Numbered from the stretch's first letter, positions 24,063 to 41,874 are shown. The stretch is 64,000 nucleotides of DNA from an uncultured delta proteobacterium (GCA_963848135.1 CAWKCK010000018.1:510938-574937), one strand, 5' to 3'. Notes: a model not told the origin generated them from the letters alone. Translations and numbers: made by a program.

Positions 24063-24364
24063 GGTGCCGCCCTCCTTTTTGCCCTATCTATTAGAGACTT
24101 TTTATTGTTTCGATTGTCGATGCAATAATCATGCAATATCGACTCGTTACAACGAACATAAATTAGTTAAAATAACAACAGCTTACCGAGTATACCACGG
24201 TGTGGCATAATGAAATTGTGGAGGTTAATTTACAAACATGTGTATTTCATTTCATAGTTATAACTTGATAATCATCTAAAAGGCACCTCCCGTTCGCAAA
24301 GGACACTGCGATTCGTTATAAAGGGTTGATCCCAACCATAACCCTATAACGCAGGAGGTGCCCT

Positions 24365-25384
24365 ATGGAACTGTATGCCGGTCTGGATCTTCATTCAAGA
24401 AATACTTACATCGGTATCATGGACGATGCATTCAACCGTGTCTGTAAGAGACGTGTATCCAATGACCTTGACCAGATCCTTCAAGTTTTAAAGCCCTTCA
24501 AAAAACGATTAAAGGGATTCGTTGTAGAGTCCACCTACAACTGGTACTGGCTCGTAGATGGCCTTATGGATGCGGGCTATGGCACTGCACACTTGGCCAA
24601 CCCGTCGGCCATCAAACAATACGAAGGGCTAAAGTACAGTGACGATCAGCATGATGCCTTTTTTCTGGCCAAACTTCTCATACTCGGTATTTTGCCCGAA
24701 GGCTACATTTACCCAAAGGAACATCGCCCGATGCGGGACCTGGCCCGCAAACGGATGTTTTTAGTCCGGCACAAGACCGCGAACATCTTGAGCCTGCAAT
24801 CGCTCATTCAAAGATGCTGTGCAGTAAAAATAAGCACCAGTGACATCCGAAAGATAAACGTCGAAGCATTGGAAAGGTGGCTAAAAGAAGAGTACCTGAT
24901 TTTCTCTGCTCAAACCAGTTTGGATACAATCAACTTTCTGAAGGAGAAAATTAAACACATAGAGAAGGCAATCATACAGAGAGTCAAACTCAATAAAGGG
25001 TTCCGGCAATTGCTGACAATACCCGGTATCGGTAACATCCTGGCAATGACTATCATGCTGGAAGTGGGTGACATCAAGCGTTTTCCAAAGGTCGGCAATT
25101 TTGCTTCCTACTGTCGGTGTGTACCATCGAAGCGGTTATCCGACGGTAAAAGTAAAGGGCACGGTAACCGTAAAAATGGCAATCGCTACCTGAGTTGGGC
25201 GCTCACTGAAGCCGCTCAATTGGGCCGTCGGTATAATGAACCGTTCAGACGATACTATGACCGCAAGGCCGCTCAGGCCAATACAAGCCTTGCGACCAAA
25301 GCGCTGGGCAACAAACTGGCCCGCATCTGCTACTATATCATGAGAGATCAAGTCCCCTTTCGTGAGGAGCTTATTGCGCACTAG
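24365..25384 (+). CDS. IS110 family transposase/recombinase
   Basis: GLDLH, VVESTYNW, KYSDDQHDA, TIPGIG, SDGK, GNRYL. Confidence 0.95.
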   Translation: MELYAGLDLHSRNTYIGIMDDAFNRVCKRRVSNDLDQILQVLKPFKKRLKGFVVESTYNWYWLVDGLMDAGYGTAHLANPSAIKQYEGLKYSDDQHDAFFLAKLLILGILPEGYIYPKEHRPMRDLARKRMFLVRHKTANILSLQSLIQRCCAVKISTSDIRKINVEALERWLKEEYLIFSAQTSLDTINFLKEKIKHIEKAIIQRVKLNKGFRQLLTIPGIGNILAMTIMLEVGDIKRFPKVGNFASYCRCVPSKRLSDGKSKGHGNRKNGNRYLSWALTEAAQLGRRYNEPFRRYYDRKAAQANTSLATKALGNKLARICYYIMRDQVPFREELIAH

Positions 25385-25387
25385 TTT

Positions 25388-25690
25388 GGGACTGCAGCGG
25401 TGATCCCTACATATTGGTGGTTAAAATCCCTATTGCTTGGTTGGCCACCGCTGCACTCCCTACAAAATAAATTCAGGCGGGTGTCCGCTTTTTCGATCTG
25501 CCCTTGTCATAAGCTCGCAATGGCTGGCCCGAAAGGAGCCCTATCTCTTGTAACAACCCAATTGGCTTTGACAAGGTACCGATATTTTCTGGGGTCTGGT
25601 TTCGGACCAGGGGCTTTAGATATTCTCTCTTTGGCCTTGATCCTGATGGGTGCCTGTTAGCAGATTAAGTGACGCTGCACAGCAAACAAA
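25388..25690 (+). ncRNA. Candidate bridge/seek RNA
   Basis: Stems GGGACTGCAGCGGTG/CACCGCTGCACTCCC and CCTTGTCA/TGACAAGG; loops match the target and donor junctions. Confidence 0.55.
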
Positions 25691-25814
25691 AAGAAATTTC
25701 GGGAGCAGGTAAAAAAATAGGACGTACGCCGGACTGAATTTTTTTCCTGCAAAAAAATGTACCCCTTTTGCGATGGCGTGGTGTTTTTTGTTGACTGGAG
25801 CCTTTTAATGGGTG

Positions 25815-25913
25815 CCAATAGACCAACTATCGAAATTAGCATCAATCACGAAGATACGATCCGGCTATCTCAAGCAAATCGGCCTGGTGATAGTTCAACG
25901 ATCATAGCAGATA
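25815..25913. repeat. Repeated site B (left part CTTG at 24264-67, split by the IS)
   Basis: CTTG|CCA-N7-AACTATC..GATA-N6-GGCTAT..GATAG-N10-ATAGCAGATA. Confidence 0.75.
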
Positions 25914-25959
25914 CCTTATGTGTGCGAATTGACGAGACCAAGCGATGAAATTCCAAATT

Positions 25960-25991
25960 AAAAGGCAGTGTCATGGCTGACCCTGCCTTTT
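25960..25991. terminator. Intrinsic terminator
   Basis: AAAAGGCAG..CTGCCTTTT. Confidence 0.65.
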
Positions 25992-26026
25992 AAAAAGATC
26001 ATTTCATTAACATTATATAAGTTAAA

Positions 26027-26923
26027 TCAATTACAAATTCCAGCACCTGTCTTAATAGGATCGCCACCATTTAAACTGAATAACGCTCCAGGTTCCAAGT
26101 CAATGTCTTCAGCGAATTGAGCACAATCCGCTGTATCGTCTTGGTCTAAATCAATCTCTACAGTGTAAGATTGACTTGGTACGAGCCAGAATATGTTAAA
26201 TTCTGTTGGATTTGGATTAGATGATTTCGGAACTTCAACCCGCGTATATACTTCCTGATTACTTTCTGCAAATACAATTATGGTTGCATTATCGGAGTCA
26301 CCAAATGATATATTATTAATACTACCGTTGATGGTGGCTGCCTTTAATGGGTGGTCAAAGAGGTGCATGACGGGTTTAAGCTTATATGTTGGATTTGAGG
26401 CGGGTCCAGAGACCACGAGAGACATGCTCAAATCAAAATGGATAATGAGATCGATAGCGGAATCGGAACCTACATCAACAATAAAATTTTTATCCGTCTT
26501 CAAATTATCGGAAGGAATTTCAACAGGCCAGTCATCCGTATTACCGTTGCTATTCAAAAGTCTTATAGTTGCTCTATCTACTACAAATCGTACTTGAGTA
26601 TATTTTCCAGAATTAAGTTTTGTCGGCGGAACAAGTTCAGTGGTTTTGCCACTGTGAAATTGTAACAAATCAATGGTATATGGAGATTCAACTAAAGGTA
26701 ATTGTTTCCATCCTTCTCCGGGTTTATGAATCCAAACCTCTGAAAACTCGACAAAAAAATTTGTAGCATTTTCAGGCAACAATGGCTTGGCATCTGTGAC
26801 AGACATCGTTACGATGCCGGAGCCAGCAGGGATTGAAGAACTTCCGCCGCCACCGCCACATGCAAACAAAACAAGTGTTGAGAACAATGAACCCATAATC
26901 CAAAATATATTCTTTACTCGCAC
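26027..26923 (-). CDS. DUF4382-domain lipoprotein
   Basis: Lipobox LFAC-GGGG, SVTDA, IDLL, GKYTQVRF, FDL, YKLKPV. Confidence 0.8.
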   Translation of the reverse strand: MRVKNIFWIMGSLFSTLVLFACGGGGGSSSIPAGSGIVTMSVTDAKPLLPENATNFFVEFSEVWIHKPGEGWKQLPLVESPYTIDLLQFHSGKTTELVPPTKLNSGKYTQVRFVVDRATIRLLNSNGNTDDWPVEIPSDNLKTDKNFIVDVGSDSAIDLIIHFDLSMSLVVSGPASNPTYKLKPVMHLFDHPLKAATINGSINNISFGDSDNATIIVFAESNQEVYTRVEVPKSSNPNPTEFNIFWLVPSQSYTVEIDLDQDDTADCAQFAEDIDLEPGALFSLNGGDPIKTGAGICN

Positions 26924-27408
26924 TATTTCCCCCTTTTCAATTTTCAGTCTTTATGTAGAAATTATATATTGGTAAATTGAAAAAATAGCTGCAAATAATA
27001 TGCAAGGATTATTTTGAATTTCTTAATATATAATATAATTATATAGTTGCGGCAGTATTTTTTTCTGATTTTGATATTTTTCCTGTTAATCTGTATGTAG
27101 ATTCCTTCGGTTTGTAGATAATTATTTACCGGATAGGTACAAAGTGTCCGAAAAAATATAGTTTATTAGGTATGAAATTTCATACAGGTCAGACTCAATC
27201 GGACATTAAATATCAGAATGTCTAAATAAGAGGCTGGAATTTTATTGATATTTCGTATTGATGAGCGTTTTGTTTTTCACACGTATGAAAACGACTTTAT
27301 TTTTCGGAGATCCGTTAAAATAAAATCCAGTATAAACACCGCTTAGTAGTAACCAACTATACACTTACCTTGATAACCGCAACGCACTAAAATCAAATCG
27401 AGTATGAC

Positions 27409-27424
27409 GATATGGTCTGGCTAT
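27409..27424. repeat. Repeated site C (partial)
   Basis: GATA-TGGTCT-GGCTAT, close to the copy at 35391. Confidence 0.45.
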
Positions 27425-27481
27425 AGCCAGAAATTCCACCAATATCACCAATTAGCAATCGATCAGTACGTTTGACTCTTA

Positions 27482-28831
27482 TCAATATGCTAAATTTTCA
27501 AATCTTGTATATGCTTTTAAAAAGGCCAATTTGACTTTATCAACAGGACCGTTTCTATGTTTGGCGATAATGATTTCGGCTTTGCCTTCTTCAGTGGATG
27601 ATTCCCCTTTCTTTCTAAATACCTCCGCTCGATGGATAAACGCAACAAGATCTGCATCCTGTTCAATGGCTCCGGATTCTCTGAGATCCGATAACCTGGG
27701 GCGCTTATCGTCCCTCTTTTCCAGTTGGCGATTCAGTTGGGAAAGGGCGACAACCGGGATATTCAATTCCTTTGCAAGCCCCTTTAAAGATCGGGATATT
27801 TCCGATATATCCAGATCCCGCCGTTCCGATTGCCGGTGAGCATTCATCAGCTGAAGGTAATCGATGATTATTAAGTTCAGCCCTTTATCCATTTTTAACC
27901 GCCGTGCTTTCGTTCTCAGATTCAAAACCGTGGTACCGGCCGTATCATCTATGTATAAAGGCGCTGTTCTCAGCCGGTTTCCCGCCTCTTGAATTCTTCT
28001 CCAAGCATCATCTGAAATAAAACCATCTCTGAATCGATTCGAGTTTACCCTGGATTCAGCAGCGAGAAGGCGCAGGGCCAGTTGTTCCTTTGACATTTCC
28101 AACGAAAACACGGCAACAGGAATATTGTTGTCGACCGCTACGTTGCGAGCGATATTCAAAGCGAAAGCCGTTTTCCCCATGCTTGGTCTTGCAGCGATAA
28201 TAATCAGGTCTGCATTCTGGAACCCGGAGGTCAGAGTGTCGAGTTCTTTAAAGCCAGTGGGGACCCCTGAAACACACCCTCTATTTTCACGCCTTTCTTT
28301 AATCGTATCGAAACTGCCGTCAATCAAATCTCTCACCCGATGAAATGAGGGGTTAATCTTTCTTTCAGAGATTTCAAAGATACCTCTTTCGGCCACATCG
28401 ATCATCTCTTGAACATCACATCGCACTTCTAAACAGCTACGGACAATATCATTACCCTTTTCAAGCAGAGCCCTCAGCGTACCGTTGTCATGCACAATCC
28501 TGGCATAGTGGCGGACATTGATTGCAAATGGGGCCCTCTCCATAATTTTTGATAGGTAGACCGGCCCGCCGACCTTGTCCAAATCACCTCTGACTTTCAA
28601 TTTGTTGTTGAGGGTCACAAGATCGACCGGTTCATCATCCTTGTATAAGTCGACGATGGCAGAGAAAATTCTTTGATGAGCCGATCTGTAGAAGTCACCC
28701 GGGGACAATATTTCTATAATATCATTCAAGGTGCGGTTATCTATCAAAACTGAACTAATCAAAGACTCTTCGGCTTCGATGTTATGCGGCGGCAGTTTGT
28801 TTAGAAGAGGATCTTCGCAGTACGGCATCAC
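27482..28831 (-). CDS. dnaB: DnaB-family replicative helicase (accessory copy)
   Basis: PPHNIEAE, AARPSMGKT, SLEMS, IDYLQL, LSQLNR, LRESGAIEQDAD, KHRNGP. Confidence 0.93.
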   Translation of the reverse strand: MMPYCEDPLLNKLPPHNIEAEESLISSVLIDNRTLNDIIEILSPGDFYRSAHQRIFSAIVDLYKDDEPVDLVTLNNKLKVRGDLDKVGGPVYLSKIMERAPFAINVRHYARIVHDNGTLRALLEKGNDIVRSCLEVRCDVQEMIDVAERGIFEISERKINPSFHRVRDLIDGSFDTIKERRENRGCVSGVPTGFKELDTLTSGFQNADLIIIAARPSMGKTAFALNIARNVAVDNNIPVAVFSLEMSKEQLALRLLAAESRVNSNRFRDGFISDDAWRRIQEAGNRLRTAPLYIDDTAGTTVLNLRTKARRLKMDKGLNLIIIDYLQLMNAHRQSERRDLDISEISRSLKGLAKELNIPVVALSQLNRQLEKRDDKRPRLSDLRESGAIEQDADLVAFIHRAEVFRKKGESSTEEGKAEIIIAKHRNGPVDKVKLAFLKAYTRFENLAY

Positions 28832-29124
28832 CTTTTTCCCCTAACCCGCATTTTTCACTAATCGCATTCGTTCATTTACAAGGCATTCAGGGGAGCAGCT
28901 GTAATCTGGTACCGCAAGCCTCTGATAACGCAGTAAATGGGCGAATGCGGTTGGCCCCGCGGGTGAATATTTTTTAGCATTTTTTTTCAGATCGTTGGGG
29001 GTACAAAATGAATATTACAATTTAGCGGCAGAATAAGGTTTAACTCACTGGTATTATGTATATTTTAAAGGTGCGCTGAAAAATATTCATGAAATATGCG
29101 GGCTAAATGATCCGCGACGACTCA

Positions 29125-29153
29125 TATATTGTTCGATATAATCGAACAATATA
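29125..29153. promoter_or_regulatory. Perfect 13-bp inverted repeat, candidate operator upstream of dnaB
   Basis: TATATTGTTCGAT-ATA-ATCGAACAATATA. Confidence 0.65.
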
Positions 29154-29181
29154 GCCAAAATTTTTTGGCGCTTATAAAATG

Positions 29182-29877
29182 TTATGTAGCGTATTGCCTG
29201 CTACCCCACCCAACTTTCGCGGTGGTCTCATTGATAATCAGGCCCAGTTCCTGAAGCCGTATAATCAACGCCTGTTTTGATACGTTCAGAAAACCACCAG
29301 CGTTTTGTACAGCCTGGGCAATGAAAGGCCAATTGCTGACACAAGGTTCGATGTAAATAGAGCTGTCTATCACGCTTTTTTCATTATAAAATTTGATTGG
29401 CTGGCTTCCGACCGATTTCTCGAAGGCTGACCGCACCCACTTTTCGGGCAGTAACATACAAGCTGCAAAATAATCTGCCTGCCATTCGATGGGCTTTTTT
29501 GCATCTTTTTTCCGGCAAAGGATAGCCGTTCTGTCTGCGCGTGGACCTCCATCATCATTAATATATTTTCTATGCAATACCCAGTGACCGACCTCATGGG
29601 CAAACGTGAATACGAGTCGTCCTTCATTGCAGTCGCTAAGCAAATGGGTATTGGCACATATCAATCCCTTTTTTACATAGGTAGCGCCAAGGACACCCTG
29701 CATACCGTAATTCTTTTCAAAATCTACGAAACCAATTTTCAAATCAAAATATCTTTCGATGATGTCTTCTACTGGAATGGGTGGCCTAACCACGCAACCT
29801 AGCTTCGATTCGTATCCCGCGATGATATCTTCGGCAATGAGTTGGATACCATTTTTCGGAAGCCACGGAACCTTCAT
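29182..29877 (-). CDS. ImmA/IrrE family metallo-endopeptidase
   Basis: PIPVEDI, FTFAHEVGH (HExxH), EWQADYFAA, NVSKQA..IRL. Confidence 0.88.
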   Translation of the reverse strand: MKVPWLPKNGIQLIAEDIIAGYESKLGCVVRPPIPVEDIIERYFDLKIGFVDFEKNYGMQGVLGATYVKKGLICANTHLLSDCNEGRLVFTFAHEVGHWVLHRKYINDDGGPRADRTAILCRKKDAKKPIEWQADYFAACMLLPEKWVRSAFEKSVGSQPIKFYNEKSVIDSSIYIEPCVSNWPFIAQAVQNAGGFLNVSKQALIIRLQELGLIINETTAKVGWGSRQYAT

Positions 29878-30251
29878 TTTTTTACGTCCTCCCTCTTTCC
29901 AAGTTTTGACAATCGGGCCAATTGGGTCAGGCGATCCCAGTCGTCACCACTATATTCTTGGTCTTTCGCCATTCTGAGAAAATCCGCAACCTGTGGTTGA
30001 TCGGCAACATATTCACTGAGTTCCGGATCGACTTTTTTCGCTTTGTTCAACAGGACCTTTTTATCGACGCTTAATGCCCTGGAAATATTGACGATGGTTT
30101 CCTCGGAGGGCGGGGGCACATTATCCAGTTCCACATCGCTGATATATCCTGGTGACTTTCCAATGAGGCGAGCCAATTCTCTTAAGCCTACACCGGCAGA
30201 ATTTCTGAGGGATCGAAGTAGTTGCCCAAATGTTTCTTTACTTTTTTTCAT
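29874..30251 (-). CDS. XRE-family HTH regulator
   Basis: FGQLLRSLR..GLRELARLIGKSPGYISDVE; ATGA overlap with the peptidase gene. Confidence 0.88.
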   Translation of the reverse strand: MKKSKETFGQLLRSLRNSAGVGLRELARLIGKSPGYISDVELDNVPPPSEETIVNISRALSVDKKVLLNKAKKVDPELSEYVADQPQVADFLRMAKDQEYSGDDWDRLTQLARLSKLGKREDVKK

Positions 30252-30254
30252 CAA

Positions 30255-30288
30255 TGTTCTATTAGACCGAACACTGGTGTACTGTCAA
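30255..30288 (-). promoter_or_regulatory. Sigma70-type promoter with overlapping operator for the XRE gene
   Basis: TTGACA (30288-83); TGTTC-N9-GAACA at 30255-73 directly before the start codon. Confidence 0.55.
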
Positions 30289-30482
30289 GTTGTTTTTATT
30301 AAACGAGGACTAAAGTTTTCAGATACCGCCCCATCATATAGCCTCACACTGAAGGTTTTCAAAAAACGCCGATCTGGAAATAAGAGAAATGGAAGTGGAA
30401 CGGTGAATGGCGTAGTCGGGCGTGATTACTGCAAAAGCGATAAAGCCACGAGGGGTTCACCCCTTTGTTGTTTTCTCGGGTA

Positions 30483-30540
30483 GGACTATACTCGCGCCCT
30501 TGGCGTGACAGACCACGATCCCGCCTCTATCGGGATTAAC
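30483..30540 (-). pseudogene. Degenerate tRNA-Asp(GTC)-like relic preceded by a small hairpin
   Basis: Minus strand CTGTCACGCC-AAG-GGCGCGAGT resembles the tRNA-Asp anticodon arm and T-stem start; no intact T loop or acceptor stem. Confidence 0.35.
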
Positions 30541-30796
30541 GTCCATCTCTTAAACCCTTGGGAAAGCGGCTGATGCCGCGCTTTTTGATTTTGCGCTCAA
30601 GCATCGTTGCTTCAGAGCCGGTAGAAACCTGTTGGGACCAAAACAGAATCCAGGGGCCACGAAAGCGTTTGGTGGTTTTTGATAAGTCATTGTCAGGATT
30701 GTTGTGCTGGGAGAGTCTGACTGGCAGGTCTGTGGTTTGCCCGCAATAGTAGCGGCAGGTAGATTGGCTTTGGAGGATGTATACCCAGTGCTCCAT
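30536..30796 (-). CDS. Small GIY-YIG nuclease
   Basis: WVYILQS..YYCGQT..RL..HN, GPW, ERKIK. Confidence 0.85.
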   Translation of the reverse strand: MEHWVYILQSQSTCRYYCGQTTDLPVRLSQHNNPDNDLSKTTKRFRGPWILFWSQQVSTGSEATMLERKIKKRGISRFPKGLRDGR

Positions 30797-31222
30797 CATA
30801 AAAAAGGCCGGTGAAACCGGCCATAATTATCGTGGCTCACCGAGGGCTACGAATGTGAGAACATAAAAACCAAAATCATTTTGAGGGGTTATGAAGGTAA
30901 GGCTATATTAGGACCGCCAAGCCCTCACGTGAAAGATTCCATCGCTATCCACACCTAATCATCTATGACAATAACCCGAGTGTGGGTGTCGCTAAGCAGC
31001 TCGGTCCCCTACCCTGCAAACGAACTGATGAGGTGCAATAACCAAGACTCAATCTGTCACTTTTAAAATCAAGACATAATTTGACCTGACAAAACGCAGA
31101 GTTGTGATAAATTTACAGTATATGAATTTTTCAGGAGGCTAATTTTATACAAATGGACGGTAGATATATAAAACGGCAAGCCCCAAGAAGCCCTGCCGTT
31201 GAATGTCGAGTATCCAAAACAC

Positions 31223-31624
31223 CTACTTTTCTTTAACCTTATAATTGACGTTTGGACTCTCGCCTTTAAATGGATACTCTTTATCATTAGGGTCGTAATG
31301 CAGCTGAATGCCAGTATCGTAGCAAGCATCGAATTTTACAATATCAGAGGTGATTGTGACGTTACGCTCACAGTCCATGTTCATAGCAGCAGTACGGATT
31401 TTTACCACTACATTTTCTCCACGTTCTTCAAAAATCCAATCGCTTACCCCACTACTATTCCCACGCCATTCTACCAACCACCCATTGGGTCGAAGTAGCA
31501 GAGCCTTTATTTTGCCTGCGCCGCCTGTTGCAGTGTCCCCTCCGGCAATAGCATAATCGAGTGTACTTAGACTGAAAACCAAAACAATTGCTAACGTCAA
31601 GGCGGAGATTCGAGAACAAGACAT
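31223..31624 (-). CDS. Hypothetical secreted protein
   Basis: Signal peptide, GGGGG RBS, downstream hairpin 31172-31201. Confidence 0.6.
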   Translation of the reverse strand: MSCSRISALTLAIVLVFSLSTLDYAIAGGDTATGGAGKIKALLLRPNGWLVEWRGNSSGVSDWIFEERGENVVVKIRTAAMNMDCERNVTITSDIVKFDACYDTGIQLHYDPNDKEYPFKGESPNVNYKVKEK

Positions 31625-31976
31625 GGCTTACCCCCTTTCACAAGTTCACGACGTTAAACAGCGTTAAGATTGTTTTGACATCACCTCCTTACAACACCGA
31701 ATTTCGTAACCAGCCAGACAGTTATGGCAGACACAAATTGTAATGTTTAAATTGGGGAGAAAGGTAAGCGAGTATTGGCGGTGGATGTGGATGAGGTAGC
31801 TGGATATCCCTCAGAAGTCAGTATAAGTTTAAATCTTCCCTAATACTGCATATCCAGATATCAATTCAAATGTCAATGCCACAACGTATCAGTTTGCTAA
31901 AATTGTCACTATCTGCAAAATTACAAAAGTTCAGATATGTAAGATGATATATGTAGTTTATCAGATGATATCGGAG

Positions 31977-31995
31977 TTTTGTTAGATAGCAGATA
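31977..31995. repeat. Repeated site D (partial)
   Basis: 19-bp identity with 23268-23286. Confidence 0.6.
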
Positions 31996-32074
31996 CATTT
32001 AGCGTCTGGTTTGTTGGCTGGAAGCTCTTGTTAGTGACAAACAATAAGTCCGGCGGGTTTCTTTTTAACGGTGC

Positions 32075-32548
32075 TCACCCAAGTGCAACTGCGACCGCCA
32101 TACCCACTCCGAAGAACAAGTGATTGGCCAGACTAGAAAGAGGGCTTTTGATCCCTTCGGGAGACCGCCGGCCAAACATGCCAAACCCCATCGAAGGGTA
32201 TACAAAAAACAGGGAGGCTACCGTTGTCGCGACTCCATAAATAAATGCCCATACTGGCGACACAGGCCCTCCAACCAAGAGATTCCAACCGAGGATGAAT
32301 GGGATCGCGAACCCTACTCCGATGACGTAATGCGTGAAATAGCCATAAACCATCTCGTTTGGGACGCACTCCATTTCGTCTGGGTGGTTATACCGGAAGC
32401 GCCCTTGTGTCCATCCCACGGCCATCCTACCAATAATCCTCACGTCGATCTTCGAGATCACCCCAATCCGGGCGAAGAGATGATTCAAAGAATCCATCAT
32501 CAACGTCCCCAACACTCCGGCTATGACTCCTTTTACGATGAGATCCAT
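32075..32548 (-). CDS. DUF2938-like membrane protein
   Basis: GVLGTLMMD, IGR, HYVIG, PSMGFG, NHLFFGVG. Confidence 0.75.
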   Translation of the reverse strand: MDLIVKGVIAGVLGTLMMDSLNHLFARIGVISKIDVRIIGRMAVGWTQGRFRYNHPDEMECVPNEMVYGYFTHYVIGVGFAIPFILGWNLLVGGPVSPVWAFIYGVATTVASLFFVYPSMGFGMFGRRSPEGIKSPLSSLANHLFFGVGMAVAVALG

Positions 32549-32692
32549 CACCTCTCCAGTGACCGAACACGAGATAGCAGACTACTTGTCAGTGCGTGGA
32601 TTTTCAGTTTCCAAGGATTTTCTAATTGACACTTTCAAACATATCAGCAGTAATCGTGAGTCCGAACTTTTCGACCGAAACTATAGCATTCA

Positions 32693-32780
32693 TACTTTTG
32701 GGGAGCGCAATTTATATCAGATTACCATATGATATTCACAGTTTTAAGCCATTTTACATTCATAGCCGACATTTACAACT
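32693..32780. repeat. Diverged copy of the region downstream of the recombinase (41624-41711)
   Basis: Shared 25-mer CAGATTACCATATGATATTCACAGT at 32718 and 41649. Confidence 0.75.
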
Positions 32781-32959
32781 TTACAGATTGGTGGATATCA
32801 CAATATGTAAGATACACTCCAAGTAGAACTTTTATTCAATAATATGAGTGCACCCAAAATTGCTACAAAAATTTTACTGGAATTGTTTTTTTAAGGATAT
32901 CATCTTATCTCTCTCGTTTTCTTGGTAATGACAACCAACATGGATACCATCGTTTCTGC

Positions 32960-34861
32960 CTATTTCGTTTTATTTTGTTCCGCTTCGACCTGCTTCGCGG
33001 CGACAGCCGCTGCGGCACCGGCCTGAACAGCCTTTTTATTACGTTCAACGGCTTCCTCATCCGACGGCATGTAGACTGTTACATTGCGATGGGCGAATTC
33101 GATGCCATTATCCCTGAAAGCCTCTTGCATCATCCGGAATACCTCTCGCCGAATGACAAACTGCTCGCCCGGTATGGTTTTAAACTTCACTCGCATAATC
33201 ATGGCCGAATCATCCAATTCTCTGACCCCCTGGGATTTAACCTTACCTAGCATTACTGGGCCCATCTCTTTATCTTTCTTGATTTTTTTATTGATCTTCT
33301 TAATAATTTTTCTGACCCTATCGACGTCCGTGTCGTAACGCACGCGAAAATCAAGTTTGGAAATGATGTAGTCCCGGCTGTTATTGGTCACCGTGTCCAT
33401 GCTGCCGAAGGGGATCGTATGAACAGGGCCCCGAGGACTGCGCAGTCTCAACGAGCGCAGGGATATATGTTCTACCGTACCCTTCATGCCGCTAGTTTCG
33501 ATGTAGTCGCCGACCCGGAAAGCATCATCGATGAGGAAGAAGACGCCTGCGATAATATCTTTTACCAGGGTCTGGGCACCGAACCCAATGGCCAAGCCGA
33601 TCACGCCGGCACCTGCCAGAAGCGGAGCAATGTTTATCCCCATTGAGGAGAGCAGAAGCAGGATTACGATGGTGAACATCACGACCACCATCGTTTTGCG
33701 CAGCAAGAGGAGCAAGGTTTCACTCCGGGAGCCGCCGGCACCGCCTTCTTCCGCCTGACTATCTTGTTCCGGTAGGTCTTCCTCTATGTTTTTTTGGATG
33801 TGGGATTTCACAAACTCCCATAAAATTAAACCGACCAAAAAGAGTATGAAAATCCGCTGCAGGGTATTTTCGAGGAATATGAGCACCGATCCGGTAATAT
33901 TGATATGCTCGTCAAGAATATACTTTATCAGACTGACCATCAGCACGGTAAAAAGGATAACCAAAAGCCATCCGGTAGTTTTCTTTCCTGAAGAAAGCTC
34001 GGCAGTCCTTCGATACCACCACCGGACAAGCAGCCGAACAACCAGCAAGACAACAAGGGGCAGAACAGCCAGTGCGCACCACTGCCATAGAGTCTGATCA
34101 AGGTACGTCGCATTTGACCAGGCTGGCAGCCATTGGCTCCACTTGGGCGGCAACAGTCGGCCGGGATTGGTTACATAAAAATCAAAAAATTCACTGCTGA
34201 TGAGCGCATTCTGCTTGTAGGGATAGTCTTTTACTTTACCGTAGAATTCTTCAAGTCGAACGACCGTCTCAGGGGTAAAGAGAAACTCCCCTTCGCGGGG
34301 ACCTTCCTCAACCCGGTCAATGATAATATCAGTATTGGGGATTCGCCAGCGAATCAATTCCGCTATTTTCTCCATTTCTTCCTCAGCTTCGATGGCTTCG
34401 GCGTCTGGGATCTTTTCAAATGGGGGAAGGTCGATCCGGTCGAAAACCTCTTTGAGCATGATGGCGCCCTCGTAACCTGTATTCTTCTTCAGATTCGTCG
34501 GAACCTGGCTTAAATTCAAGCATTCGACGCCGCTTTCGAAAAATTCCTCTGCTTGTTTTACCATCTGCCGGACCGATTCTGAGGGAAAGTATCCGGGCGT
34601 TTTCAAGTTTTTTCGATGGGCCTTCATCAACATACTGTAAGCAAGGTTCATATTTTCGATAAAGCTTCTCAGCGTCTCCCGTGGACTGACCGTATTGGGT
34701 GGCTTGAGCAAAGCATTAGCGCTTCCAGAAGAATCATCATCCTCTGGGCGTGTTGATGTGGATTCTACCGAAGCGGCTTCTTGCGCAATTGCGATAGTCA
34801 CAACAAACGCCGCGATGAATAAAATTGTCGTGAATCGAAATATTGATTGGCTCAATTTCAT
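32960..34861 (-). CDS. Large MscS-family mechanosensitive channel
   Basis: LLAGAGVIGLAIGFGAQTLVKD, FRVGDYI, GTVEHI; signal peptide at MKLSQ. Confidence 0.88.
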   Translation of the reverse strand: MKLSQSIFRFTTILFIAAFVVTIAIAQEAASVESTSTRPEDDDSSGSANALLKPPNTVSPRETLRSFIENMNLAYSMLMKAHRKNLKTPGYFPSESVRQMVKQAEEFFESGVECLNLSQVPTNLKKNTGYEGAIMLKEVFDRIDLPPFEKIPDAEAIEAEEEMEKIAELIRWRIPNTDIIIDRVEEGPREGEFLFTPETVVRLEEFYGKVKDYPYKQNALISSEFFDFYVTNPGRLLPPKWSQWLPAWSNATYLDQTLWQWCALAVLPLVVLLVVRLLVRWWYRRTAELSSGKKTTGWLLVILFTVLMVSLIKYILDEHINITGSVLIFLENTLQRIFILFLVGLILWEFVKSHIQKNIEEDLPEQDSQAEEGGAGGSRSETLLLLLRKTMVVVMFTIVILLLLSSMGINIAPLLAGAGVIGLAIGFGAQTLVKDIIAGVFFLIDDAFRVGDYIETSGMKGTVEHISLRSLRLRSPRGPVHTIPFGSMDTVTNNSRDYIISKLDFRVRYDTDVDRVRKIIKKINKKIKKDKEMGPVMLGKVKSQGVRELDDSAMIMRVKFKTIPGEQFVIRREVFRMMQEAFRDNGIEFAHRNVTVYMPSDEEAVERNKKAVQAGAAAAVAAKQVEAEQNKTK

Positions 34862-35348
34862 AATATTAGTTCCTTTGAATCCTTCACACGATATGATCCG
34901 CCTATCTGATCTGACTTGGTCGGTACAAATATATTGCCAGAATTGATTATCTGTTACCCCAATTTCCTGCGTAATTTGTATTTTAGCCAACCCAAAACTC
35001 AAGGGATTAATGAAAGATTGATTCGCACTTTTTTGTGTTTACGGCAATTTTAGTGGCGACGAATAGATTATGGAAAAATTATATATAATGACTGAAGTTA
35101 TCAATCTTGTGAGAAATAAGATTAAGGTATTATAAATTGAGTTGAAAGACAAATACATCATTCGTGTATTTCAGATTCACAAATATACAGAATTTTACTT
35201 CATGAAAAACTGTGGGTTTCGTACCTGCTTCGAATCTTTAGGTGGACCCGAATAACTCAAGATTGGCGGATGTAATATTCATTTTGGGGAAATTGCAGAT
35301 TTGGGCATGATCGGGAGGACTTTCGGGGTCACACACAACCTATTGTTT

Positions 35349-35448
35349 CTTGCCACAGGTCAAACTATCCGTAATTACGCCAAATATCACGATATCGTCT
35401 GGCTATATTCAGGAAATCCGCCGAGTGATAGATGTTGGACCATAGCAG
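35349..35448. repeat. Repeated site F (complete, uninterrupted)
   Basis: CTTGCCA-N7-AACTATC..GATA-N6-GGCTAT..GATAG-N10-ATAGCAG. Confidence 0.75.
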
Positions 35449-35480
35449 CAGATTTGAGTTCTCACATTCGTTTGATACGG

Positions 35481-37707
35481 GTAAGTAGCGCGGAGAAGTC
35501 TCACCCCCACGCCCTCCAAGAACCGTACGTGACAGTCTCCCGTCATACGGCTCCTACTGTCCAGCCGACGGCCGATAGCCAAATTCCCAGGAAGCAATTA
35601 ATCTGGGGTCTCGGCGTGCAATGCAACCCAACCAATGGGTCGCTTTGAGCCAATGGCCTCTCAACCTCTTGTATTTCCGCATCGCCCAACGAACCAAGGC
35701 ATACTGAAGCTGGCGAAGGATGGGACGCATTGCTGATTTGTAGTATCTGCCATAGTAATTCAACCAACCCCTTATAACAGGATTGATTCGCCTGGCAACA
35801 TCCTCTAATGACGAGGAACTCCATAATTGCAGTTTCCAGCTCCTTATCGTAGCACTCATCGCCTTTAGCGCCGATTTGCTCACCGCTGGGTTAAAACCCA
35901 CCAAATAGTTTCGCCCTCTACAGTCATGGGGCCGAAAGCTATAGCCGAGAAAATTAAAACTCTCATGCTCATGGCTTCCAGGGCGTTTTGCATCCTTACA
36001 ATATACAATCTTCGTCTTCTCCGGATGCAATTGCAGCTTGCAGCGTGCCAGACGTCTCTCAATGACTCTCAGCATAACCCGCGCCTGAGCTTCCGTGTGA
36101 CAGTGGACAATAATATCATCCGCATATCTTGCAAATGGTGTACTCGGATGATTTACTCTCATCCACTCATCAAATGCGTGGTGAAGAAAAATGTTGGCCA
36201 GCAGAGGGCTGATAACACCCCCTTGCGGCGTGCCCTCCAACGTCTTGAACCATTTGTCGCCCTCCAGGACCCCGGCTCGCAGCCACTGCTTTATTAGCCG
36301 CAGTATTCGTGGGTCGGCAATCCTGCGTGCAACCATCCGCAGAAGCCACTCGTGGTCAACCGAGTCGAAAAATCTACGAACGTCTGCGTCGAGCACCCAG
36401 TTTATTTTGCGTTTAATTAGCGCTGCATTAAGCGACTGCAAAGCATGATGCGGGCTTCGCCCCGGCCTAAAACCATACGAAAAACCGAGAAAGTCAACCT
36501 CATAAATTGCGCTCAGAACCTCTGATACCGCTCCCTGGACAATCTTGTCTTCCAGTACCGGTATACCAATCGGTCGCAGAGCTCCATCTGCTTTGGGCAC
36601 ATAAGCCCTTCGCACTGGCCGAGGTCGGTAGCTTCCCGAATGGACCCGGTCGCATAACCTTTTAAGATTAGCTTCCAGATTTTCGCCGTACGCTTCCACC
36701 GTAACGCCATCGGCCCCGGCACTCGCATTCCGCCTTTGCCGGTTGTAGACTCTTCTAAGAGCCTCCACGTCGATGTGATGCATCAATGCTGTAAACCGGG
36801 TCTTGCGCGATTTCCTCGCCGCCTCGTTCACTCTGGCAAGATTGGCTGGCAAGGCTGCCCGACCCTGTGTTCGGACCTTCGCCTTCCTACCAGAGTTCCC
36901 CTCAGGCCAGGGCCTTCCCTCCGTACACCGCGTACTATTTTCCTTCGTTGACATCATCAGTACTACACCCCAGTCCGCCACCCCGCCTCAGCTCAGATCA
37001 AGGCTCCGGTCATCCCTTGCCCTGATCCCCCTACAGTGACCATCTATAGGACCCGACGGGGCTTCCTGGGTTCCTATGCCATCCTTTCGTACGTGATGTG
37101 GTCTCAGACCCCGATGGAGCAACATCGTCTCGCGTTAACGACGATGCATATGCTGCCTTCGACGCGTGGGACGGTCTCGGCCTCCACAATTAGTGTATTT
37201 CGTGGCTCAATAGCACACCCCGCACAAATGCTGTCTACGCTTCGAACGCCCTGTTACCAGTACGCTCGCAAGACTCGCTCCCGGCCCGCTCGCTAAGCTT
37301 TAGCCGGACGGGACTTTCACCCGCAAGATGTCACAAACTTCTCCCAGCGCACCCCACGTTCCGCACAAAAGCCTGGGCCAAGTTCATGCCATCTCTATGC
37401 CGGACGCCGCCCAGACAATAAACAGGCTCTCTCTGGGCTTATCCTGCAGGCCTCCAAGTACCCACAGTTTTGACGCCATCTCAGATATTTCGACACCTCA
37501 TCAATGGTTCGCTTGCACTCATCTCCTTGATCCGTACCGGACACGGTCTTTGGCCATGCCTTTCCCTTAACGCTCACCACAACGGCTCTTTACCGATGCA
37601 GCTTAAGGTGGTTTGAAGCCTGCTCCTGCAAGCCGACTCCGAGGGACCCTCCCTCATCTTCTGTGCAGTTACGCACACTTTATATTAAAAGTGCGCTCGT
37701 GGCGCAC
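35481..37707 (-). mobile_element. Group II intron locus with two nested 5' ends and one 3' end
   Basis: GTGCG starts at 37707 and 37352; domain V GAGCCGTATGAC.GGGAGAC.GTCACGTACGGTTC; domain VI ends GCTACTTAC near 35481. Confidence 0.88.
35554..36981 (-). CDS. ltrA: Group II intron reverse transcriptase/maturase, no endonuclease domain; start uncertain
   Basis: RPIGIP, SYGFRPGR, DADV..FFD, GTPQG, RYADD, FLG, domain X RGWLNYY. Confidence 0.92.
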   Translation of the reverse strand: MADWGVVLMMSTKENSTRCTEGRPWPEGNSGRKAKVRTQGRAALPANLARVNEAARKSRKTRFTALMHHIDVEALRRVYNRQRRNASAGADGVTVEAYGENLEANLKRLCDRVHSGSYRPRPVRRAYVPKADGALRPIGIPVLEDKIVQGAVSEVLSAIYEVDFLGFSYGFRPGRSPHHALQSLNAALIKRKINWVLDADVRRFFDSVDHEWLLRMVARRIADPRILRLIKQWLRAGVLEGDKWFKTLEGTPQGGVISPLLANIFLHHAFDEWMRVNHPSTPFARYADDIIVHCHTEAQARVMLRVIERRLARCKLQLHPEKTKIVYCKDAKRPGSHEHESFNFLGYSFRPHDCRGRNYLVGFNPAVSKSALKAMSATIRSWKLQLWSSSSLEDVARRINPVIRGWLNYYGRYYKSAMRPILRQLQYALVRWAMRKYKRLRGHWLKATHWLGCIARRDPRLIASWEFGYRPSAGQ

Positions 37708-37717
37708 TTGGAGACAT

Positions 37718-37776
37718 CAGTAACGCTTAGCATAAGTCGTGGCGGCATTTTGCCGTCGCCTCTAATGCTGTTGATT
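37718..37776 (-). other. Degenerate attC-like site (59 bp)
   Basis: Minus strand AATCAAC-AGCATTA..GGCGACGGCA-AAA-TGCCGCC..TTATGCT-AAGC-GTTACTG, just downstream of a small gene. Confidence 0.5.
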
Positions 37777-37800
37777 ATAATGAATTTCTATGACAGATTT

Positions 37801-38259
37801 CTATATTTTGATCAGATTCATAATGTCTTCATTCAAGGGAATATCCGCCATCGAATGTCCGTAATGCACATACCGAAGCATTCCAGACTTATCAATCAGC
37901 ATCTGGGCTGGCATTCTGCCCAACTTGAACAAATTGACCTCCTGCCCGTATAATTTTAAAATTTTATGTTTCGGATCAGGTAATCCGATAAATGGCAGGT
38001 CTTCCTTTTTCCAGTACTTCTGAAAAGATTCGGCATCCTCAGGTCCAATTACGACTATTTCTGTATCCAGTTTAAAAAAGCGCTGATAATCTTGACGCAA
38101 CTGCGCCATATGCTTGCGGCAGAATGGTCAGACAAATCCACGATTAAAAACTACCAGCACATTTTTCTGTCCGGCAAAATCTGAAGGTGAAACGTTGCTT
38201 CCATTAAAATCGGGTAAGGTAAACTCAGGAGCATGGGTATTTAGCTCAACTTTGGCCAT
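37801..38259 (-). CDS. Peroxiredoxin-like (AhpC/TSA) selenoprotein with UxxC
   Basis: MAKVELNTHAPEFTLPDFNG...NRGFV-TGA(38130-28)-PFCRKH is in frame with the 102-aa ORF; GGAG RBS; downstream hairpin. Confidence 0.85.
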
Positions 38260-38494
38260 GATTGGCTCCTTACTCTTAAATTTCTAATGTACCTTGGAAA
38301 ACCTGATTGGTGAAGATTCCTCTTTGGGTAAAATGCCTGTCGACTACAGATACATTGAGAGTAATTGAAAATCGTAGGATGGGTCAATAATCAAACCTGC
38401 TTGCCACTGTACGACATAAAAAGGTAATTGACTGAAAGTGTTACAGAGGTCATTATCTGCCTGTTTTTTCTGCTAAAAACGAAAGGAGGCAGTG

Positions 38495-39580
38495 ATGAAC
38501 CTCGAACACGTTTCCGCAGAAATCCAGACCGATCAACTCAAAAGGCATCGGTCCGGCAAGGACAAATCAATTCGTTCGTCCTCGGTCCGTTCCAATTTCG
38601 ATCGAAATCCCTTCACTTTCAATCCTCTTATTGACCGAATCCTACGCAAAATCACCGTGCAGGATCTCTTGGCTGCGGAGCATGTCGAGGCATATTTGCG
38701 CGATCAGCATCGACGCAATTGCCGACACAACACGATCCGATCCAACGGCGCCAACATTACCGGTTTTTTACGTTTTCTCAAAGACAGCGGCATCGATCAA
38801 CTGCAAGCCATCAACCGCGAGCACATCGCCGAATTCGTTGAACATGAGCAAGGCCGCGGGCTTTCACCCAATACGGTCAGCACTCAGTTGCGCTGCCTGT
38901 ATGCCTTTATCAACTTTTTGATCGATCGCGATGTGCTTCACCCGGATCTGCTCAAGCGCAAACTGCGCATTAAAGTTCCCGATGCCCTGCCGCGGGCCAT
39001 TGATCCGGATCATATCAAGCAGCTGTTGGCCGTAGTCAAAAAACCGCGTGATCGCGCCCTGGTATTGACATTGTTGCGAACCGGGATGCGCATCGGCGAG
39101 CTGCTCGGCACCAAAGTGGAAGATCTCAACCTGCGGGAAAATATTATACAAATCATAGAAGCACAAAAGAACCGGGTCGGACGCGTTGTCTATTTGAGCG
39201 ATGATGCCCGAAGCGCTCTAATAAAATGGCTGAACACCAGGAGAAGACAAAGCGGGTTCATCTTCTACGGCAACTGCGGGCGAGCCCTGGGTTATGCGGC
39301 TGCCCGCCTAATCTTCAACGCCTATCTGCAAAAATCCGGACTGGCCCACAAGGGATATACCCTGCACTGCCTGCGGCACACCTTCGCCACAGAGCTGCTC
39401 AACGCCGGTATGCCGCTGCAGTGTTTGCAGGAGCTTCTCGGGCACAGCTGCATCGAAATGACCCGCCGCTATGCCCGGCTGACCGACAACACGCGCCGGG
39501 AACAATACTACAAAGCCATGGCCATCGTCGAAAAGGGAGAACTCCATGGACATTACCAACTCGATTATCAACTACCGTAG
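38495..39580 (+). CDS. Tyrosine recombinase A (intact)
   Basis: TGMRIGE, HCLRHTFAT, LLGH, RRY. Confidence 0.93.
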   Translation: MNLEHVSAEIQTDQLKRHRSGKDKSIRSSSVRSNFDRNPFTFNPLIDRILRKITVQDLLAAEHVEAYLRDQHRRNCRHNTIRSNGANITGFLRFLKDSGIDQLQAINREHIAEFVEHEQGRGLSPNTVSTQLRCLYAFINFLIDRDVLHPDLLKRKLRIKVPDALPRAIDPDHIKQLLAVVKKPRDRALVLTLLRTGMRIGELLGTKVEDLNLRENIIQIIEAQKNRVGRVVYLSDDARSALIKWLNTRRRQSGFIFYGNCGRALGYAAARLIFNAYLQKSGLAHKGYTLHCLRHTFATELLNAGMPLQCLQELLGHSCIEMTRRYARLTDNTRREQYYKAMAIVEKGELHGHYQLDYQLP

Positions 39581-40483
39581 GTTCTTAAAGCGACGCAATT
39601 ACTCCGCCCATACGCTGCGAACCTATATGAGCACCCTGAAGCAGTTTGTCGTCTGGCTGGATATGCCCGTGGAGGCTGTCACCCACAAGAAACTATTGGG
39701 CTTCATCGATTATCTGCGCAGCAAGCGTTTGAAACCCAAGACCGTCAATTGCTACCTGGACAGCATCCGCGGCTTTTATGATTACCTGATCAACGAAGAG
39801 GAGGTTGTAATGAGCAATCCGGTCAAGCGCGGGTATACCTTAAGGCTCTCCAGGCCACTGCCGCGCTACCTGCGGGATGAAGAGATCTCTGCGCTCTTTG
39901 CGGTCATCGACAATCCCAGAGACCGGGCCATCTTCAAGCTGATGCTGCGCTGCGGACTCCGGGTCGAAGAGGTAACCAATCTCACTCTGAGTGCCTTGGA
40001 CCTGCCGCGGTATCAAGTGTTTGTCTACCAGGGCAAGGGGCTAAAAGACCGTGTGGTCTATCTGAGCAAGGACGCATACACCGCACTTGGCTGCTTACCT
40101 TAAAGCCAGACCCCACTCGCGGGTCAAAAAGCTCTTCCTGGTGGAAAAGGGCCGCTTTAGAGGCAAACCGCTCAAGGCCCGCGGCATCCAGCACCGCATG
40201 CAGCTCTATGCCAAGCAAAGCAGGGCTGAGAGTCTGTTGCCATCAACTTCGCCATACGATGGCCACGCAGATGCTCAACGCCGATGCCGACCTGGTTACC
40301 ATCCAGGATCTGCTCGGCCACACGCGCATAAAAACCACGCAGCGGTATTGTCGGGTCTCCAACCCGAAGGTTCGACGTGATTACTATAGCGCCATGAACA
40401 AGGTGCTTCAACGCCACACCGGTGACGGTGAAAAAACTCTTGACAAAGAGCAAAAACCAATACATTTAATGGGCTATAACTAA
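39546..40483 (+). pseudogene. Tyrosine recombinase B with two +1 frameshifts (near 40088 and 40217)
   Basis: CGLRVEE in frame 1, AAYLKARP in frame 2, HQLRHTMAT/LLGH/QRY in frame 3. Confidence 0.85.
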
Positions 40484-40639
40484 CCATTATTAATAGAAAT
40501 AATAGGTTTTATGTCGTACAGCTTGCCAGTCTCGTAACTATCGAAAATAGCGTTGAAACTGAATATACTTTCTGAGTATCATTGGTTTACCTCGGGATTT
40601 CCCCGATTGTCAAACATCAATAACCAAAGGAGGTAAACC

Positions 40640-41477
40640 ATGAAAGTGGCCAAAGCCGCGAGAATCTGGATCGATTGCCACAAAGCCCACTCGGAAAAAA
40701 AATACCGTACGGTCATACTGGTCAGTTATTGACCGATTCTGCCAGGAGTTCGGTGATGCAGGGATTGAACAGGTTACACCGGATGATGTCCTTTCCTTTC
40801 TGAACAGCTTTACCAACGGTAACAAGCCCTAGACAAAGCGAGTCCGTTATTCCCACCTGTCCGCCTTTTTCAATTTTTTCCGCAATAACGTCGACCCCGA
40901 CATAGGCAATCCGTGTGACACACCCATGATCCGAAAGCTTTATCGGGAAAGGGTGGTATCAAGATGGAAAATCATCGAAAAAGAGACCGTTGACGAGATC
41001 ATTTTCCGGACTACCAAAATTCGCAATCGATTGATGCTTGAACTGATGGCCCGTGGGGGGATGAGGGTTGGTGAGGTGCTGAAACTCAGATTGAATGACA
41101 TTCAGGATCGAAAGCTGATCCTGCGAGAACCGAAGAGCGGGAAAGAACATATGATTTTTTTTATTCCACAAAAGGTGGCTGATAGACTCCGTGACTACGC
41201 CTCTCAGACTTGTAATAGACCAGATGACCGCATTTTTCCGATTACCTATGCAGCAGCCAGGCTGGTTGTAATAAAAGCGGGAAAGACGGTTGGGATCCAT
41301 TTGAGACCCCATGACCTGCGGCGGCATTCGGCTACTTATGCCTCTCGATCCGGAGCGCCAATCGAAATCGTGAGCAAGGTCATTCTCCGTCACGCAAATC
41401 TTGCAACCACTCAGCGGTATCTTGGAACAATCAGTGATACAGAGGCGATGAGGTGGATTGAAAACCTATATTGCTAA
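40640..41477 (+). pseudogene. Tyrosine recombinase C; frame change at the A8 run (40695-702) and in-frame TAG (40830)
   Basis: GGAGG RBS, MKVAKAARIW.., then NTVRSYW..NKP*TKR..; GMRVGE, HDLRRH, LRH, QRY. Confidence 0.85.
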
Positions 41478-41482
41478 ACGAA

Positions 41483-41513
41483 AGGGGTGAATCCCTTGGT
41501 TGGCTTCACCCCT
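41483..41513 (+). terminator. Hairpin after recombinase C
   Basis: AGGGGTGAA..TTCACCCCT. Confidence 0.55.
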
Positions 41514-41523
41514 CTATTCGTTA

Positions 41524-41584
41524 GATACCGGTTGGCTATCTCAAGCAAACCGGCCAGATGATAGCTCAAAGGTCATAGCAGATA
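41524..41584. repeat. Repeated site G, right half (left half at 40522-40542)
   Basis: GATA-N6-GGCTATCTCAAGCAAA.CGGCC..GATAG-N10-ATAGCAGATA, nearly identical to 25853-25913. Confidence 0.8.
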
Positions 41585-41874
41585 TTATTTTTTCAACCTT
41601 TTCAACCGAACCGACGATATCTGTACTTTTGAGGCGAGCAATTTATGCCAGATTACCATATGATATTCACAGTAATTGGCCATTGAACGTTAATAGCCGA
41701 AATCTACAATTGTTATTGATTGTGTATTATACAGGCTAATAAAATACCGAACCCAATCCATTGATTTTATAGCCTTCACGCCGTGGCGTCACCGGCACGA
41801 TCAGAATCGCCTGTCTTCCCGTTCAGTGTTAGATATTCGATGTTGGGGGCTGACGGTATTATAGTACATAGAAT

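Follow-up and report, generated by a model that had tools for sequence, protein, structure and literature searches.

In the genome of an uncultured delta proteobacterium (6.03 Mb; designated G000), the heptamer CTTGCCA is probably the core of a non-integron cassette-array site, on which two unrelated mobile elements have specialised in different ways. These are an insertion sequence (IS) of the IS1111 family and a 2.1-kb element carrying two tyrosine recombinase genes, here called the dual-recombinase element. Both occur in a 64,000-nt stretch of this genome (GCA_963848135.1 CAWKCK010000018.1:510938-574937), referred to below as the window, in association with copies of the site named B, F and G. 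A preliminary description of the window had proposed that the two elements parasitise the recombination site of a third system; this proposal is well supported, and the earlier interpretation as a whole is partly supported. The evidence consists of the anatomy of the elements, junctions that repeat from copy to copy, enrichment at the sites, covariation of guides with flanks, and lineage-specific heptamers. It is quite possible, and is put forward here tentatively, that CTTGCCA is the strand-exchange core of an undescribed, integron-independent cassette platform of sulfate-reducer-like bacteria, which gained its parasites separately: an RNA-guided IS, two dual-recombinase lineages and possibly a group II intron. 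The principal features (window coordinates, strand) are as follows.

24264-24267, +, left part (CTTG) of the split heptamer of site B; same junction in 8 of 8 full IS copies
24266-25812, +, IS1111-family IS, 1547 bp if the TG core is counted once (NF033542, 193 bits; cut-off 140)
24365-25384, +, DEDD transposase gene, 339 aa (PF01548 and PF02371)
25392-25455, +, predicted seekRNA target-binding hairpin, supported by guide/flank covariation
25636-25654, +, second conserved non-coding motif CUUGAU-CCUG-AUGGGUGCC, identical to the right terminus of the IS together with the core TG and the 2 nt that follow it in the right flank
25813-25913, +, site B, right part (TGCCA and site body)
35349-35451, +, site F, intact CTTGCCA-N7-AACTATC (35349-35369; heptamer 35349-35355) plus site body; left border of an AhpC-like cassette
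38400-38406, +, heptamer that closes the AhpC-like cassette on the right and serves as left direct repeat of the dual-recombinase element
38407-40521, +, dual-recombinase element, 2115 bp, with perfect 15-bp inverted ends (38407-38421 and 40507-40521)
40522-40528, +, heptamer that forms both the left edge of site G and the right direct repeat
40522-41584, +, site G, left half 40522-40568 and right half 41523-41584, with a nested Xer-like recombinase pseudogene between them

The cassette-junction site and its heptamer

A profile built from sites B and F and searched genome-wide at E<0.01 recovered 63 copies of a repeat of about 105 nt that has CTTGCCA as its left edge. These copies form same-orientation arrays with a spacing of 1-3 kb on contigs 1, 5, 17 and 18. 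The genome contains 911 CTTGCCA words, 208 of which lie outside long open reading frames (ORFs), and 457 AACTATC words; CTTGCCA stands exactly 7 nt upstream of 14 of the latter, against an expectation of about 0.03. CTTGCCA alone was not enriched in the window (13 found, 9.3 expected). In the 49 site copies that include the left edge, this edge reads CTTGCCA in 31 and GG-TGCCA, the IS junction, in 4. Site F, which had been described as an empty copy, is confirmed as such: from 35349 it reads CTTGCCA-N7-AACTATC with no interruption.

An alignment of 32 full copies revealed the conserved blocks CTTGCCA, AAC(TATC), GAAAT, ACGATAC, TCTGGCTATCT, AAATC, GATAG and CATAGCAG, among which the heptamer is the best conserved. 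In many copies CTTG is preceded by an upstream arm, GGTCAATA-N10. The site is also widespread among relatives: with up to one mismatch allowed, CTTGCCA-N7-AACTATC was found in 13 of 15 sister genomes (31, 25, 10, 9 and 9 hits in the richest), and the reversed motif, used as a control, gave 0-3. In a hand count of the 76 one-mismatch hits from these 13 genomes, the mismatch fell within AACTATC in 58 and within the heptamer in 18. An Rfam search returned no match at the sites.

Site G is interrupted by a nested Xer-like recombinase gene (40640-41477), whose copy in the window has an extra TAG. Further copies lie at C17:1226211, C5:35490, C17:1237878, C17:37543, C18:882145 and C5:657236 (contig:position), several of them with extra stops. 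In all seven genome copies (7/7) the reading frame has to shift at a run of 8-9 A close behind the start, and judged from the sequences this conserved shift looks programmed rather than a result of decay. In an otherwise intact copy on contig 17 (about 1225.2-1226.2 kb), removing one A from the run would give the reading frame. Relatives of the gene, often broken, are present in 7 of the 15 sister genomes. Against the integron-integrase model TIGR02249 the nested recombinase scored 59 bits (cut-off 265), with only the N-terminal half of the model matched; like the recombinases of the dual-recombinase element, it lies below all equivalog cut-offs. The nested recombinase may be the enzyme that performs cassette exchange.

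A 144-nt block follows the ..ATAGCAGA end of two sites (32635-32778 and 41566-41709; mutually 72% identical), and pieces of it are 95-96% identical in the sister genomes G007 and G003. In G003 the block abuts a match to window positions 35270-35345, as if the intervening MscS gene were cargo.

Two unrelated elements at one heptamer

The preliminary description had the IS split CT-TG-CCA in site B, and the sequence bears this out: CTTG lies at 24264-24267 and TG-CCA at 25813-25817. The right end of the IS, ...AATGGG (25810-12), is followed by TG-CCA (25813-17), 7 nt and AACTATC (25825-31). The IS has subterminal inverted repeats, TAAAAGGC on the left and GCCTTTTA on the right; they amount to 8 perfect base pairs, or about 12 bp if one indel is allowed, and fall short of the 11-13 bp given in PMC11187229. 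Non-coding stretches of about 100 nt and about 430 nt lie upstream and downstream, respectively, of the transposase gene. The genome contains eight full copies and three fragments of this IS (92-94% identity), and in 8 of 8 full copies the junctions read ...CTTG / IS / TGCCA... in one orientation. The right flank continues as N7-AACTATC, with at most one mismatch, in five of the eight, and a sixth is in a variant site whose left half is different. Binomial probabilities were computed for element flanks against two backgrounds, all heptamers and heptamers outside long ORFs; for the IS (5/8 at sites) these are P = 5e-6 and, for the 208 non-ORF heptamers, P = 4e-3.

The split heptamer is best taken as derived from the target and as no part of the IS terminus, because the junctions keep the site spacings TGCCA-N7-AACTATC and GGTCAATA-N10-CTTG, and because IS-free sites read CTTGCCA. 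One of these is the paralogue at C17:44651 of the IS-occupied cassette at C5:43059, and the other is a site in a sister genome (G003:C10:151924) that is 95% identical to the site B body. CTTG...TGCCA junctions were also found in four copies from three sister genomes and in two copies, with about 75% protein identity, from another family of the order. The three sister genomes (of 15) that contain the IS are the three richest in sites. A search of 401 genomes with a 13-mer from the IS right end gave mostly chance matches, the reversed control being of a similar order, and IS loci from this search were kept only if the full end context was present.

Straight after the transposase stop codon, a hairpin with a 10-bp stem has two predicted guides in its loop. 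The top-strand guide, ACAUAUUGG-UG (25409-25419), pairs with the top strand of TG-CCAATA, and the bottom-strand guide, CUAUUGCU-UG (25430-25439), is identical to the top strand of ..CT-TG; together they read CT-TG-CCAR. This order of guides and their overlap at the core agree with published IS1111 seekRNAs, in which the top-strand match is described as lying 5' of the bottom-strand match (PMC11187229). On this sequence evidence, together with the covariation described below, the IS is counted among the seekRNA-bearing IS1111 elements, and the predicted RNA is probably made.

Guides and flanks were compared in 96 records, comprising the 8 copies in this genome, 8 genome loci and 80 metagenomic loci, the last being the best 80 of at least 588. 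Parsing of the guides was heuristic; 49 of the 96 records were parsed, with one evident mis-parse retained in the counts. Over positions 4-9 of the right flank, Watson-Crick pairing with the element's own guide gave 3.53 matches out of 6 (n=49; 1.95 after shuffling), and 3.58 within the CCA class (n=24; 2.26 after shuffling). The left flank gave 4.52 matches (n=33; 2.45 after shuffling), and in all three comparisons 0 of 5000 shuffles reached the observed value. Similarly, relatives with flanks AGTC-TG-ACCCCA have guides UGGGGU-UG and AGUC-UG, and those with flanks GGCC-TG/CG-ACCCCG have UUGGGGU-UG and GGCC-UG. In the second conserved motif, the two flank bases are AC instead of CC in the three lineages with a flank that starts ACC. 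Folding of the whole IS non-coding region was no better than that of shuffled sequences (z = -0.94), and the hairpin is accepted because its guides covary with the flanks, not because of folding energy.

The IS appears to be written against CT-TG-CCAR and a few bases of the N7 spacer. One guide of the hairpin would pair with the top strand, TG-CCAR and 3-5 nt beyond, and the next with the bottom strand of (N)CT-TG, so that the seekRNA-guided IS would recombine at the heptamer's internal TG and always insert in the same orientation. Because the guides would specify this word and a few spacer bases, the IS would be expected to prefer the sites and to land occasionally at other heptamers.

Left flanks were readable in 14 IS relatives with at least 70% identity, and four of these (L177, L184, L190 and L195, all metagenomic) end in CAGATACCT directly before the TG core. 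The site B body has this word at its end as well (25901-25914); in the organisms of these four loci the heptamer may follow directly after a site body. The IS copy in G007 (L003 / L159, G007:C40) has a 47-nt tandem partial duplication of its right end, and on the left it is flanked by sequence orthologous to the left flank of the G000 copy at C17:1253875.

The dual-recombinase element duplicates CTTGCCA at site G, as had been described, with copies at 38400-38406 and 40522-40528. That it is unrelated to the IS also holds, since it encodes two Xer-like tyrosine recombinases and the IS a DEDD transposase of the IS110/IS1111 type. Its first recombinase gene spans 38492-39580; two extra bases disrupt the second (39546-40483) in the window copy. 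Contigs 17 and 5 carry copies with both genes intact (362 aa, and 311 or 306 aa). Three full copies (97-100% identity) and one fragment form family 1, all flanked by CTTGCCA. The three full copies (3/3) abut a site body of the ..TC(G/A)TAACTATC subclass, which has P = 4e-5 against all heptamers and P = 3e-3 against non-ORF heptamers. Family 2 has 70% DNA identity to family 1, 61% identity in the second recombinase and different inverted ends, and 2 of 2 copies are again flanked by CTTGCCA.

At least 80 public-genome loci are related to this element, and 65 of them were examined, 15 being left out for a partial match or a contig end. The same build of about 2.1 kb, with 14-bp inverted ends and a 7-bp direct repeat, was shared by 41 of the 65. 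Their heptamers are of 13 kinds (GTAGGTG 11, CTTCCTG 8, CTCCAAC 5, CAAATAC 5, and others), and none of the 41, among the loci listed, has CTTGCCA. In several groups of loci (L070-L074, L076/L091, L109/L110 and others), the same heptamer goes with a shared flank beyond it, e.g. ..AAAGTTGCGAT.. before CTCCAAC. Judged from these flanks, each lineage seems to have a repeated site of its own as target in its host.

A tree of the second recombinase (RecB; 35 rows, midpoint root, with 3 near-duplicate loci and 5 with internal stops excluded) placed family 1 with the CTCCAAC lineage, whose inverted ends it shares (clade support 100/99). Family 2 grouped with the CGTGCCT lineage (92/79) on a long branch and was not sister to family 1. 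The overlap thus appears, on this tree, to have become CTTGCCA twice, in a host that has that word as its cassette core. Joining of the element ends would give a 15-7-15 site in which CTTGCCA is the 7-bp overlap, and the element would integrate wherever the chromosome has the same overlap, leaving the heptamer on both sides. This overlap would be changeable in evolution. A literature search for the dual-recombinase unit yielded only unrelated eukaryotic transposon papers, which does not settle whether the unit is already in print. The term BIM ("bipartite module") was considered for it and rejected, as BIMs are described as one recombinase plus a protein of unknown function (PMC3414803).

Cassette borders and competing explanations

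The heptamer also marks the borders of cassettes. The clearest example is the AhpC-like cassette between site F and the dual-recombinase element, which contains the following features.

35480-37707, -, group II intron within the AhpC-like cassette (Rfam RF02005, RF01999 and RF00029); missing from the contig-17 paralogue
37801-38259, -, AhpC/TSA-like cassette gene with an in-frame TGA

Window positions 35349-35479 and 37708-38407 correspond to one contiguous stretch of contig 17, with 100% and 99% identity. With 300-nt flanks added to the query, the match on contig 17 begins exactly with the initial C of the left CTTGCCA and ends a single base beyond the right CTTGCCA, and the neighbours of the two paralogous cassettes are unlike on both sides. 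The contig-17 paralogue lacks the dual-recombinase element; its left arm is the same, and the heptamer is present once. In the second paralogous pair (C17:44651 and C5:43059), homology begins inside the heptamer. This evidence, good but thin, suggests that cassettes are exchanged at the heptamer and that the exchange crosses over within it; CTTGCCA is most likely the strand-exchange overlap of the 105-nt junction site.

The preliminary description had taken the insertions as an independent suggestion that the motif is functional. The choice of this word by the IS is insufficient for that conclusion, since its family also targets repetitive extragenic palindromic (REP) repeats; the motif is regarded as functional because it forms cassette borders and is used as a recombinase overlap, not because the IS chose it. 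A rather unlikely explanation is that CTTGCCA is only a safe harbour, a frequent, harmless and conserved intergenic word without a role in array recombination, and that the arrays exchange cassettes at another place in the site or through homologous recombination of site bodies. The targeting of REP repeats and of transposon ends by this IS family (PMC11187229) would fit such a role, as would the occurrence of the IS and of family 2 at heptamers without a site body and the lack of a detectable conserved fold or of definable inverted binding arms in the site. However, paralogous cassettes start and stop exactly at the heptamer, not variably in the body of about 100 nt, the conservation of the heptamer exceeds that of the adjacent block, and a tyrosine-recombinase element has the heptamer as its overlap, the usual place of strand exchange. 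It is more improbable still that the dual-recombinase element is itself the engine of the arrays, moving cassettes with the sites as its chromosomal partners. Element and sites do have the 7-bp core in common, and the right-end arm of the element (..GTACAG) resembles the left arm of some sites. Yet in a search of 20 genomes of the taxonomic family at E<=1e-60 the element was found in none of the 19 others and is therefore taken not to be the builder of the arrays, the site motif being present in 13 of 15 sister genomes with up to 31 copies; moreover, relatives with other heptamers behave as self-contained 2.1-kb units. Scarcely credible, finally, is a coincidence or artefact in which CTTG and TGCCA are IS termini, the dual-recombinase element itself includes the heptamer repeats, and the repeat family is matched by chance. 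Identical flanking letters in all IS copies cannot alone separate terminus from target, but the register with the site body and upstream arm is kept, the IS-free paralogue and orthologue sites, empty as they are, read CTTGCCA, and IS relatives with the same ends have other flanks matched to their own guides. The contig-17 cassette, with its one heptamer, likewise speaks against the repeats being part of the dual-recombinase element.

Several observations weigh against CTTGCCA as the core of a cassette site. The proposed crossover in the heptamer is based on two paralogous cassette pairs and one orthologous site, and neither an excised circle nor a recombination product was seen. RNAalifold found no consensus fold in the 32 sites on either strand, and no inverted binding arms could be defined in the site. 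The window copy of the nested recombinase gene is broken, as are those of many sister genomes, and at E<=1e-60 the recombinase was not found in G007, despite 25 sites there. The predicted guides pair with the TG core by wobble only. The long branch of family 2 and the midpoint root weaken the inference of two origins from the RecB tree. In addition, two of the eight full IS copies and one fragment lie at CTTGCCA without a recognisable site body, neither family 2 copy is next to one, and among 11 metagenomic IS relatives with a CCA flank the body is clear in one and possible in two more.

These last points qualify two of the earlier claims. The survey of flanks for CTTGCCA-N7-AACTATC that had been proposed is positive in this genome (5/8 full IS copies; 3/3 of family 1), but a site body is missing at the two IS copies, the IS fragment, both members of family 2 and most metagenomic IS relatives. 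Similarly, parasitism of a third element's site stands insofar as both elements recur at the cassette-border heptamer, but they need the heptamer and a few neighbours, not the whole site.

Comparison with known systems and further features

Parasites of cassette sites are already known as a kind, as are heptamer-flanked tyrosine-recombinase transposons. The IS1111 members ISKpn4, ISPst6 and ISPa25 are described as targeting integron attC sites (PMC11187229; PMC13604230 Table 1), and the likeness drawn earlier between these and the present IS is apt. The IS is built like them in the IS1111 manner (PMC11187229), with subterminal inverted repeats, a DEDD transposase of 339 aa (about 330-350 aa in the family) and a long non-coding region downstream of the transposase gene. 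It also shares with them site-specific insertion in one orientation into the site of a cassette system and the order of the seekRNA guides. Unlike them, it targets the 7-bp core of a non-integron site, and its conserved target, as read from the sequence, is short, about 8 nt plus a few variable positions. IS1202-family elements (ISAjo2 relatives) are reported to adjoin the pdif sites of Acinetobacter dif modules (PMC10132070); they too are specialised on Xer-type module junctions, but they differ in IS family and mechanism.

The Helicobacter element TnPZ (XerT) is described as a tyrosine-recombinase element between fixed heptamer direct repeats that are single at empty sites (PMC2731543). The dual-recombinase element resembles it by behaviour only, with a fixed heptamer on both sides that occurs once at empty sites; TnPZ is large and conjugative with one recombinase, whereas the element here is 2.1 kb, with two recombinases, perfect 15-bp inverted ends and a lineage-specific heptamer. 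Unlike the dual-recombinase element, Tn554 has a third gene and is not known to have inverted ends. Its two adjacent tyrosine-recombinase genes are both required (PMC3414803), and the likeness to it is one of gene arrangement.

As in integrons, clusters of attC sites lacking integron-integrases (CALINs) and Acinetobacter dif modules, the arrays consist mostly of single-gene units in one orientation with a repeated recombination site between them and a tyrosine recombinase gene within the array. They differ from integrons in that the recombinase falls far below the integrase cut-off (59 against 265 bits) and the site has no attC-like consensus fold, and an integron reading was rejected on these grounds, the nested recombinase failing the IntI models. 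attC sites are imperfect palindromes with a conserved fold and R''/R' cores; their core motif is GTTRRRY, and by eye it was not seen conserved in the sites of the arrays. In contrast to both integrons and dif modules, the recombinase gene is nested inside a site, and the sites are of about 105 nt with several blocks, against the 28-bp sites of dif modules, which are of the type XerC-spacer-XerD and are acted on by the host XerC/D.

What is new is that the target is the core of a non-integron site, that natural guide/target pairs can be read from the sequence, and that two unrelated mechanisms, one of them in two lineages, converge on the same seven bases. If the proposed reading is true, these elements would parallel the parasites of integron attC sites, and the overlap of small dual-recombinase transposons would be an evolvable address, with target choice set by a 7-bp overlap that differs between lineages. 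The IS would be a natural case of a seekRNA directed against the recombination site of another element, with many guide/target pairs in one clade. Mobile elements specialised on a word point independently to the place at which a recombination system acts. In the present case the word they pick out is 7 bases long within a 105-nt site, and in an uncharacterised cassette system this would provide a precise experimental target.

The limits of the group II intron in the AhpC-like cassette (35480-37707) are set by the intron-free contig-17 paralogue; it begins GUGCG and lies about 28 nt outside the body of site F. Three of the four copies of group II introns in this genome are in or beside junction sites. 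Group IIC-attC introns, a published lineage, are reported to insert in the attC bottom strand (PMC3001079); the intron here is likewise in or beside a junction site but shares its strand with the cassette gene. A second intron subfamily (78% identity; C18:452912, C18:591054 and C1:222808) has two of its three copies inside site bodies, and the group II introns are oriented like the cassette genes.

The in-frame TGA of the AhpC/TSA-like gene is codon 44 (38130-38128), in the context ..GFV-TGA-PFC.., which resembles a U-x-x-C redox motif, and the product may be a selenoprotein. This cassette was looked for in G006 and G007, where the site body is common and the gene was not found. Outside the cassette, an intergenic repeat of about 270 nt (28833-29107) lies between the DnaB-like and M78-peptidase genes; copies occur on contigs 12, 1, 18 and 4 (77-88% identity), and many are present in sister genomes.

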